Source: a phage. Taken from it: DNA of 64,000 nucleotides. This document shows, in pieces, positions 22,296 to 22,986 of the stretch. Both the position numbers and the translations under genes were made by a program. Each line of letters starts with the position of its first letter. The first letter of the stretch is position 1. The stretch lies in the sequence record PZ583738.1; one strand, written 5' to 3'. The notes below the pieces were generated by a model that made no database searches, had not been told where the DNA came from, and saw only the letters and a list, made by a program, of their open reading frames with translations.

Positions 22296-22531
22296 TGTCT
22301 GAACAAACTATTGAACAAAAACTGCAGTCCGAAATCGTTATCCTTAAATCCCGTATTCTGGACACTCAAGACCAGGCTGGCCGCATTAAAGCTGAATCTG
22401 ACCAGTTTGTTAATGCACTTGGTCAGATTGCCCAGCTGGTTGGCGTGACCGGTGAAACTGTTAAGCTGGAAGATGTTATCCAGGCTGTCGCTGATAAAAT
22501 TGCCCCGGCACCTGCAGCTGACGAAGAATAA
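22295..22531 (+). CDS. 57A: tail fiber assembly chaperone gp57A
   Basis: 78 aa; [26 protein letters not shown] nearly identical to T4 gp57A N-terminus. Confidence 0.9.
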
Positions 22532-22986
22532 TGACATTAAATGAAGTCTCTGAAGGACTTTATGTTGCAGCCAAATTTTCAGAATTAACTCTTGATGCGC
22601 TGGAAAATCTTCAGCGCACTCTTAAGGTACCTAATCCCGTTCCTCGCGAAAAATTCCATTCCACTATTTGTTATTCCAGAGTAAATATTCCATATGTTGT
22701 TGCCTCTGGTAGTTTCGAAGTCGCTAACTCTGGACACCTGGAAGTATGGAAAACCGATGATGGTAGTACCCTGGTTCTTGTACTGAATTCAGATTATCTT
22801 AGTTGCAGACATATGTATGCACGAGCCATTGGCGCAACACATGATTTCCCGGACTATACTCCTCACATAACATTATCCTATAATGTTGGTCCTTTGACGT
22901 ATAAAGGAGAAGTTCAGATTCCGGTTGTTTTAGACCGTGAATATAAAGAACCGCTAAAATTAAATTGGTCGGCGGATTTAAAGTAG
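22531..22986 (+). CDS. 57B: gp57B; 2H-phosphoesterase-like protein (Acb1 anti-CBASS nuclease homolog)
   Basis: 151 aa; position after 57A; two H-x-T motifs ([18 protein letters not shown]) typical of 2H phosphoesterases. Confidence 0.75.

Follow-up and report, generated by a model that had tools for sequence, protein, structure and literature searches.

Gene 57B of a Gaprivervirus phage as a predicted intact orthologue of the T4 anti-CBASS nuclease Acb1

Organization of the 57B locus

The window analyzed in this study is a stretch of 64,000 nucleotides of phage DNA (sequence record PZ583738.1), in which gene 57B is preceded by genes for a tail completion protein, a dNMP kinase and a tail-fibre assembly chaperone (Table 1). 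A preliminary description of this DNA had reported a 57B gene with two H-x-T/S motifs; its coordinates are exact, and the motifs lie at residues 43-45 (HST) and 112-114 (HIT) of the product. It had also set 57B next to the chaperone gene 57A, and the gene directly upstream is indeed the one recognized by the Pfam GP57 profile.

Table 1. Positions of acb1 (gene 57B), its coding landmarks and the neighbouring features in the window
Feature	Position	Strand	Remarks
242-aa cysteine-rich ORF	18728-19456	+	flanked by gene 4 (head completion) and gene 2
Gene 2	19444-20280		
224-aa HNH-like ORF	20262-20936	+	between gene 2 and gene 3
Gene 3, tail completion protein	21022-21621		upstream of gene 1
Gene 1, dNMP kinase	21618-22295	+	Pfam DNMK, E 4.3e-77; first gene of the 1-57A-57B block
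T4-type late-promoter consensus TATAAATA	22077-22084	+	inside gene 1, 218 nt upstream of 57A
Gene 57A, tail-fibre assembly chaperone	22295-22531	+	Pfam GP57, E 4.6e-25; phrog_1002, tail fiber chaperone
acb1 (gene 57B) CDS	22531-22986	+	ATG start; 151 aa, stop codon inside the end coordinate; from the six-frame ORF list
Catalytic motif 1, H43-S44-T45	22657-22665	+	T4 H44-x-T46; aligned with T4 and with 7T26 chain residues 36-38
Catalytic motif 2, H112-I113-T114	22864-22872	+	T4 H113-x-T115; aligned with T4 and with 7T26 chain residues 106-108
E140 codon	22948-22950	+	T4 E141; kept in T4 and 7T26, invariant in nine homologues
C-terminal lid, residues 144-151	22960-22983	+	T4/FBB1 145-152, including W146 (T4 W147); from the T4 alignment
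63-nt spacer after the acb1 stop	22984-23046	+	extended hairpin, GUGUAGG...CCUACAC
Five small ORFs in series directly after acb1	23047-24500	+	73-110 aa; starts at 23047, 23388, 23669, 23967 and 24279
Second TATAAATA	23371-23378	+	10 nt ahead of the start codon of the 23388 ORF; overlaps the last part of the previous ORF
tRNA genes Met-CAT and Arg-TCT	26004-26156	+	adjacent; the only two in the whole window

Over the 1.8 kb around acb1 (gene 57B), DNA identity reaches 99.2% with phage P479 and 99.0% with Escherichia phage vB_EcoM_RZ (hereafter RZ). As RZ is classified as a Gaprivervirus (Tevenvirinae, Straboviridae), its 99% identity at this locus places the window in Gaprivervirus as well. 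The 1-57A-57B gene order recurs in T4, in RZ and the Gaprivervirus EAWsc9, in Bragavirus, Krischvirus, Tulanevirus and Chrysonvirus, and in an Acinetobacter phage; the Schizotequatrovirus locus displays a like arrangement of ORFs that are annotated only as hypothetical. Just as in T4, acb1 occupies the slot directly after 57A. The TAA stop of 57A overlaps the acb1 ATG by a single base (TAATG), whereas the corresponding overlap in T4 comprises 4 nt (ATGA). This stop/start overlap suggests co-transcription and translational coupling of the two genes, and acb1 would most likely be expressed within the 1-57A-57B transcription unit, with its translation coupled to that of 57A.

The match to the T4-type late-promoter consensus TATAAATA inside gene 1 is found at an equal distance upstream of 57A in EAWsc9 and RZ, and in T4 a copy lies 363 nt upstream of 57A. 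The consensus is not enriched in the window, with 7 matches versus 5.2 ± 2.0 in shuffled sequences, and the copy at 22077 is a possible, tentative lead for a promoter of 57A and acb1. The position of such a late promoter fits the middle/late expression reported for T4 57B (bioRxiv 10.64898/2026.03.30.715471). Between 20900 and 24600 there is no excess of sigma-70 promoters (16 versus 11.0 ± 3.9 in shuffles) or of intrinsic terminators (4 versus 2.5 ± 1.5), and no MotA boxes occur near acb1.

The spacer that follows the acb1 stop can fold into a hairpin of -16.3 kcal/mol (z = -2.46), a stability reached by 3 of 200 shuffles. As the hairpin is not followed by a U-run, it does not qualify as a canonical intrinsic terminator; a role in RNA stability or processing is conceivable. 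At the corresponding position T4 has a hairpin of another sequence, TGAGGTA...TACCTCA.

Sequence motifs and family membership of the 57B protein

The preliminary description was correct on T4 gene 57B: it encodes Acb1, which belongs to the 2H phosphoesterases and has an HxT/HxT tetrad comprised of H44, T46, H113 and T115 (Hobbs et al. 2022, PMC9117128). In the translation of the window gene the two motifs are found in the contexts KFHSTICYS and TPHITLSYN, and HST and HIT are the only two occurrences of H-x-[ST] in the protein, which has five histidines. When the protein is shuffled, at least two HxT triplets turn up in 3.4% of the resulting sequences, and 15% have two or more Hx[ST] triplets; among the 83 window ORFs of at least 100 aa, two contain at least two HxT triplets. 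Given the frequency of 3.4% for two HxT triplets, we rejected the motif pair alone as sufficient evidence for Acb1. It is weak as a bare pattern, and its significance for 57B therefore rests on homology rather than on the motif count.

A comparison with Pfam recovered the Acb1 family PF23474 at an E-value of 1.7e-59 and a score of 200.1 bits (curated cut-off 27), with residues 8-148 of the protein spanning positions 1-143 of the 144 in the profile. No other Pfam family was detected in the protein at E-values up to 0.1, and a scan of NCBIfam yielded no family for Acb1 or for the small proteins encoded downstream. The protein is 82% identical to T4 57B (NP_049750.1) with no internal gaps. A tblastn search of 50,697 phage records with the 57B protein found homologues in 1,479 of them, including a 100% identical protein in RZ (UGL59995) and proteins of about 82% identity in T4, T2 and their relatives. 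The full-length PF23474 match and the 82% identity to T4 57B uphold the earlier proposal of an intact Acb1-type protein, insofar as intactness can be read from sequence.

Among solved structures the best match of the 57B protein is 7T26/7T27, named 'Acb1' (E 9e-62), and its identity to the crystallized FBB1 Acb1 (7T26) is 68.3% over 139 aligned residues. At 68% identity to a crystal structure the same fold is expected, and from this relationship we infer a compact 2H phosphoesterase fold for the 57B protein. A single-sequence AlphaFold2 model of the protein had a mean pLDDT of 38 and was set aside. The two crystal structures represent Erwinia phage FBB1's Acb1 as the apo form (7T26) and bound to 3'3'-cGAMP (7T27) (Hobbs et al. 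2022, PMC9117128). A more distant match is 9Q2G/9Q2Y ('Anti-CBASS protein Acb1', 165 aa; E 0.0034), in which both H-x-T motifs are aligned (as HVT and HLT), but the alignment is low in identity and confined to residues 7-118; this protein represents a remote branch of the family.

A different function is implied by phrog_755, which the 57B protein matches at an E-value of 3.6e-65 and which carries the label 'RNA ligase', a name that many RefSeq phage records also give to the 57B orthologue. The protein would then be a LigT-like 2',5'-RNA ligase or an RNA-repair cyclic phosphodiesterase that acts on RNA ends, e.g. in tRNA repair, and not on immune signals. The HxT/HxT tetrad is common to the whole 2H phosphoesterase superfamily, LigT included, and counts in favor of this reading, as do the tRNA genes located about 3 kb downstream of acb1. 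With LigT and the rest of the superfamily the 57B protein shares the two-fold H-x-T/S signature and, by extension, a metal-independent chemistry that proceeds via a cyclic phosphate (PMC9117128). However, no LigT or 2',5'-RNA-ligase family of Pfam is detected in 57B at E-values up to 0.1, Acb1 being the sole match. Beyond the tetrad, moreover, the 57B protein keeps the contacts made with the cyclic dinucleotide in the FBB1 co-crystal (Y12, W74, F107, W147 and E141); its ligand pocket has the residues of a protein that binds cyclic oligonucleotides. The T4 protein, with its 82% identity, was itself purified by its cGAMP-cleaving activity, and deletion of its gene removes this activity from lysates (PMC9117128). 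As there is no LigT-type Pfam match and the cyclic-dinucleotide contacts are conserved, we rejected the 'RNA ligase' identity of 57B and regard it as extremely improbable. The label seems to have been inherited from the 2H superfamily, with no tested function behind it.

Most records of Gaprivervirus call acb1 a 'hypothetical protein' or an 'RNA ligase', and a 99%-identical gene in EAWsc9 is already annotated as 'anti-CBASS protein Acb1'. For the purposes of annotation, the gene should be named acb1.

Conservation of catalytic and ligand-contact residues

The residue numbering of Hobbs et al. fits the T4 57B sequence. Since the alignment between the window and T4 proteins is free of gaps, and the N terminus of the former (MTLNE...) is one residue shorter than that of the latter (MMEFKD...), residue numbers in the window protein equal those of T4 minus one. 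The window residues H43, T45, H112 and T114 thereby fall in the columns of T4 H44, T46, H113 and T115, and all four are identical; in T4 Acb1 the H44A/H113A mutant serves as the catalytically dead control (PMC9117128). The bases of the ligand stack on the aromatic residues Y12, W74, F107 and W147 of T4 Acb1, E141 contacts the adenine N6 and is the basis of the adenosine requirement, and residues 145-152 constitute the C-terminal lid (PMC9117128). The window protein has identical residues at each of these aromatic positions (Y11, W73, F106 and W146) and at the adenine-reading glutamate (E140). The 27 substitutions that set it apart from T4 Acb1 include three in the eight-residue lid, where LNWSADLK in the window aligns with LDWADDLK in T4 (5/8 identical, with the tryptophan kept), and the ORF spans the whole lid.

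In the comparison with the FBB1 chain, the tetrad (H, T, H, T), the tyrosine, the glutamate and the lid tryptophan are again identical, with W146 aligned to chain residue 140 of 7T26. The FBB1 protein differs in having F at window W73 (T4 W74) and Y at window F106 (T4 F107), both of which remain aromatic, and in a one-residue insertion after window residue 79. The alignment to characterized Acb1 by which the preliminary description had proposed to check its reading places both HxT motifs on the catalytic tetrad of the T4 and FBB1 enzymes, inside the active site.

A broader alignment included the window protein, T4 57B and homologues from phages of Proteus, Acinetobacter, Escherichia (Krischvirus), Vibrio, Aeromonas (two genera) and Enterobacter. 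Only 17 of its columns are invariant, and these include H43, T45, H112, T114, Y11 and E140. The tetrad, Y11 and E140 are thus unchanged in nine Straboviridae homologues drawn from seven phage groups, with identities down to 36%. Some homologues show unusual architectures: that of Enterobacter phage EBPL (L010, 368-991) is a protein of 207 aa with a C-terminal extension of about 55 residues and without the lid tryptophan, and in Pseudomonas phage psageK9 (L011, 1-754) a much larger protein, encoded by a CDS of 1.8 kb, has the Acb1-like segment as its C-terminal part.

Selection and intactness of acb1

In related Tevenvirinae acb1 is not always intact: Bas43 has a nonsense mutation in the gene, and escapers of type II Panoptes in Bas35 have acquired acb1 point mutations (PMC13577387). 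As the gene is broken in some relatives, a check of its intactness in the window was worthwhile. Such natural knockouts would be in keeping with a scenario in which 57B is a homologue of Acb1 whose anti-CBASS function has been lost or altered, for instance through inactivity, poor expression or a specificity narrowed by pressure from Panoptes-type guards that employ decoy signals. The differences from T4 at 18% of the residues, three lid positions among them, point in the same direction. However, the 57B ORF contains neither an internal stop codon nor a frameshift, and all the published catalytic and contact residues are kept. A Nei-Gojobori comparison with T4 57B (nucleotide identity 74%) gave a dN of 0.14, a dS of approximately 1.7 and a dN/dS of 0.08, which indicates that the protein is under strong purifying selection. 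Furthermore, in the 34 phage records with a protein of at least 98% identity, the gene is full-length and in a single piece in 34/34 cases, which argues for a maintained function of 57B. On balance, loss or change of function appears very unlikely. The window gene is better viewed as a typical, intact orthologue of Acb1, a protein whose biology is already known, as it has been characterized biochemically, structurally and genetically since 2022.

Predicted function and mechanism of the window Acb1

In all likelihood, the gene represents the T4 57B/acb1 orthologue of Gaprivervirus and is predicted to encode a small metal-independent 2H phosphoesterase. T4 Acb1 and nine homologues cleave 3'3'-cGAMP and cAAA to linear products with a 3'-phosphate, whereas cGG and cA4 are left intact (PMC9117128). 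Deletion of acb1 from T4 has no cost without CBASS and results in a defect of more than 300-fold on CBASS hosts (PMC9117128); transposon sequencing confirms that T4 57B is conditionally essential, only when CBASS is present. In E. coli, the CBASS operons of Yersinia aleksiciae and E. coli KTE188 restrict T4 devoid of acb1 (PMC9117128).

The substrates, mechanism and in vivo anti-CBASS effect of the window protein may be extrapolated from its orthology to the T4 and FBB1 enzymes. Its U-shaped pocket would bind CBASS cyclic di- and trinucleotides with at least one adenosine, such as 3'3'-cGAMP, cUA, cAAA and cAAG, with the bases stacked on Y11, W73, F106 and W146. E140 would read the adenine N6, and the C-terminal lid would close. 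The adenosine would be strained, such that its 2'-OH could attack the 3'-5' bond, and the H43/T45/H112/T114 tetrad would cut 3' of the adenosine by acid-base catalysis, with no requirement for a metal. The reaction is predicted to pass through a 2',3'-cyclic phosphate intermediate and to yield a linear 3'-phosphate oligonucleotide. Once the signal is linearized, the CBASS effectors would stay inactive and the infected cell would avoid suicide. With acb1 intact, the phage is predicted to be resistant to CBASS systems with adenosine-containing cyclic di- or trinucleotide signals. The intact gene also predicts vulnerability to Panoptes-type guards, which are fired by the depletion of such nucleotides (PMC13577387).

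The quantitative substrate preference of the window Acb1 could differ from that of T4, given that 18% of the residues, and 3/8 of those in the lid, are different. A more specific shift, whereby Gaprivervirus Acb1 spares the Panoptes decoy nucleotides yet degrades the CBASS signals, seems to us a very long shot: nothing in the sequence of the window protein favors it, though the unchanged state of all the known contact residues is compatible with it. If true, such an enzyme would represent a natural way out of the trade-off between Acb1 and Panoptes (PMC13577387).

The strategy of removing a cyclic-nucleotide second messenger of the host is also followed by Apyc1 (anti-Pycsar) and Acb2 (an anti-CBASS sponge), neither of which is homologous to 57B. 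Unlike the predicted 2H phosphoesterase, Apyc1 is a zinc-dependent phosphodiesterase of the metallo-beta-lactamase fold that acts on cyclic mononucleotides, whereas Acb2 sequesters the signals without cleaving them.

Accessory genes and tRNAs in the window

In T4, acb1 adjoins ipI and is part of an anti-defence island (Hobbs et al., PMC9117128). In place of ipI, the window has next to acb1 five small genes resembling those of internal proteins (Table 1). The N termini of all five conform to the pattern M(NI)KT[YF]xxF[ILF]xE[SA], which resembles that of T4 ipI (MKTFKEF...), and this shared region looks like a capsid-targeting leader. The five probably encode diversified internal head proteins arranged in series, a class whose members can be injected anti-restriction factors, and two of them are annotated as internal head proteins in RZ. 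In EAWsc9 the first of the series bears the label 'profilin', which seems to be an error, and for the ORF listed from 23937 the probable start is the internal ATG at 23967. The TATAAATA at 23371 could plausibly act as a late promoter of genes for head-packaged proteins, though the window shows no enrichment of this motif.

Two further ORFs are located upstream of gene 3. The 224-aa ORF between genes 2 and 3 has a weak match to the Pfam HNH domain (E 0.011, below the cut-off) and is annotated as a 'putative mobile/homing endonuclease' in P479, VR25, VR7 and UPEC07. A full-length match is present in only 9 of 34 related records, and the ORF is absent from RZ and EAWsc9; such a patchy presence is the pattern that a free-standing homing endonuclease would show. 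The 242-aa cysteine-rich ORF matches the treble-clef zinc-finger domain DUF4379 below the threshold (E 4.6e-4). RZ also has this ORF, but in T4 gene 4 directly adjoins gene 2; the ORF may have been inserted as a further mobile or accessory element. The two tRNA genes of the window lie beyond the series of small ORFs, and the T4 stretch used for comparison has seven tRNA genes in its downstream cluster.
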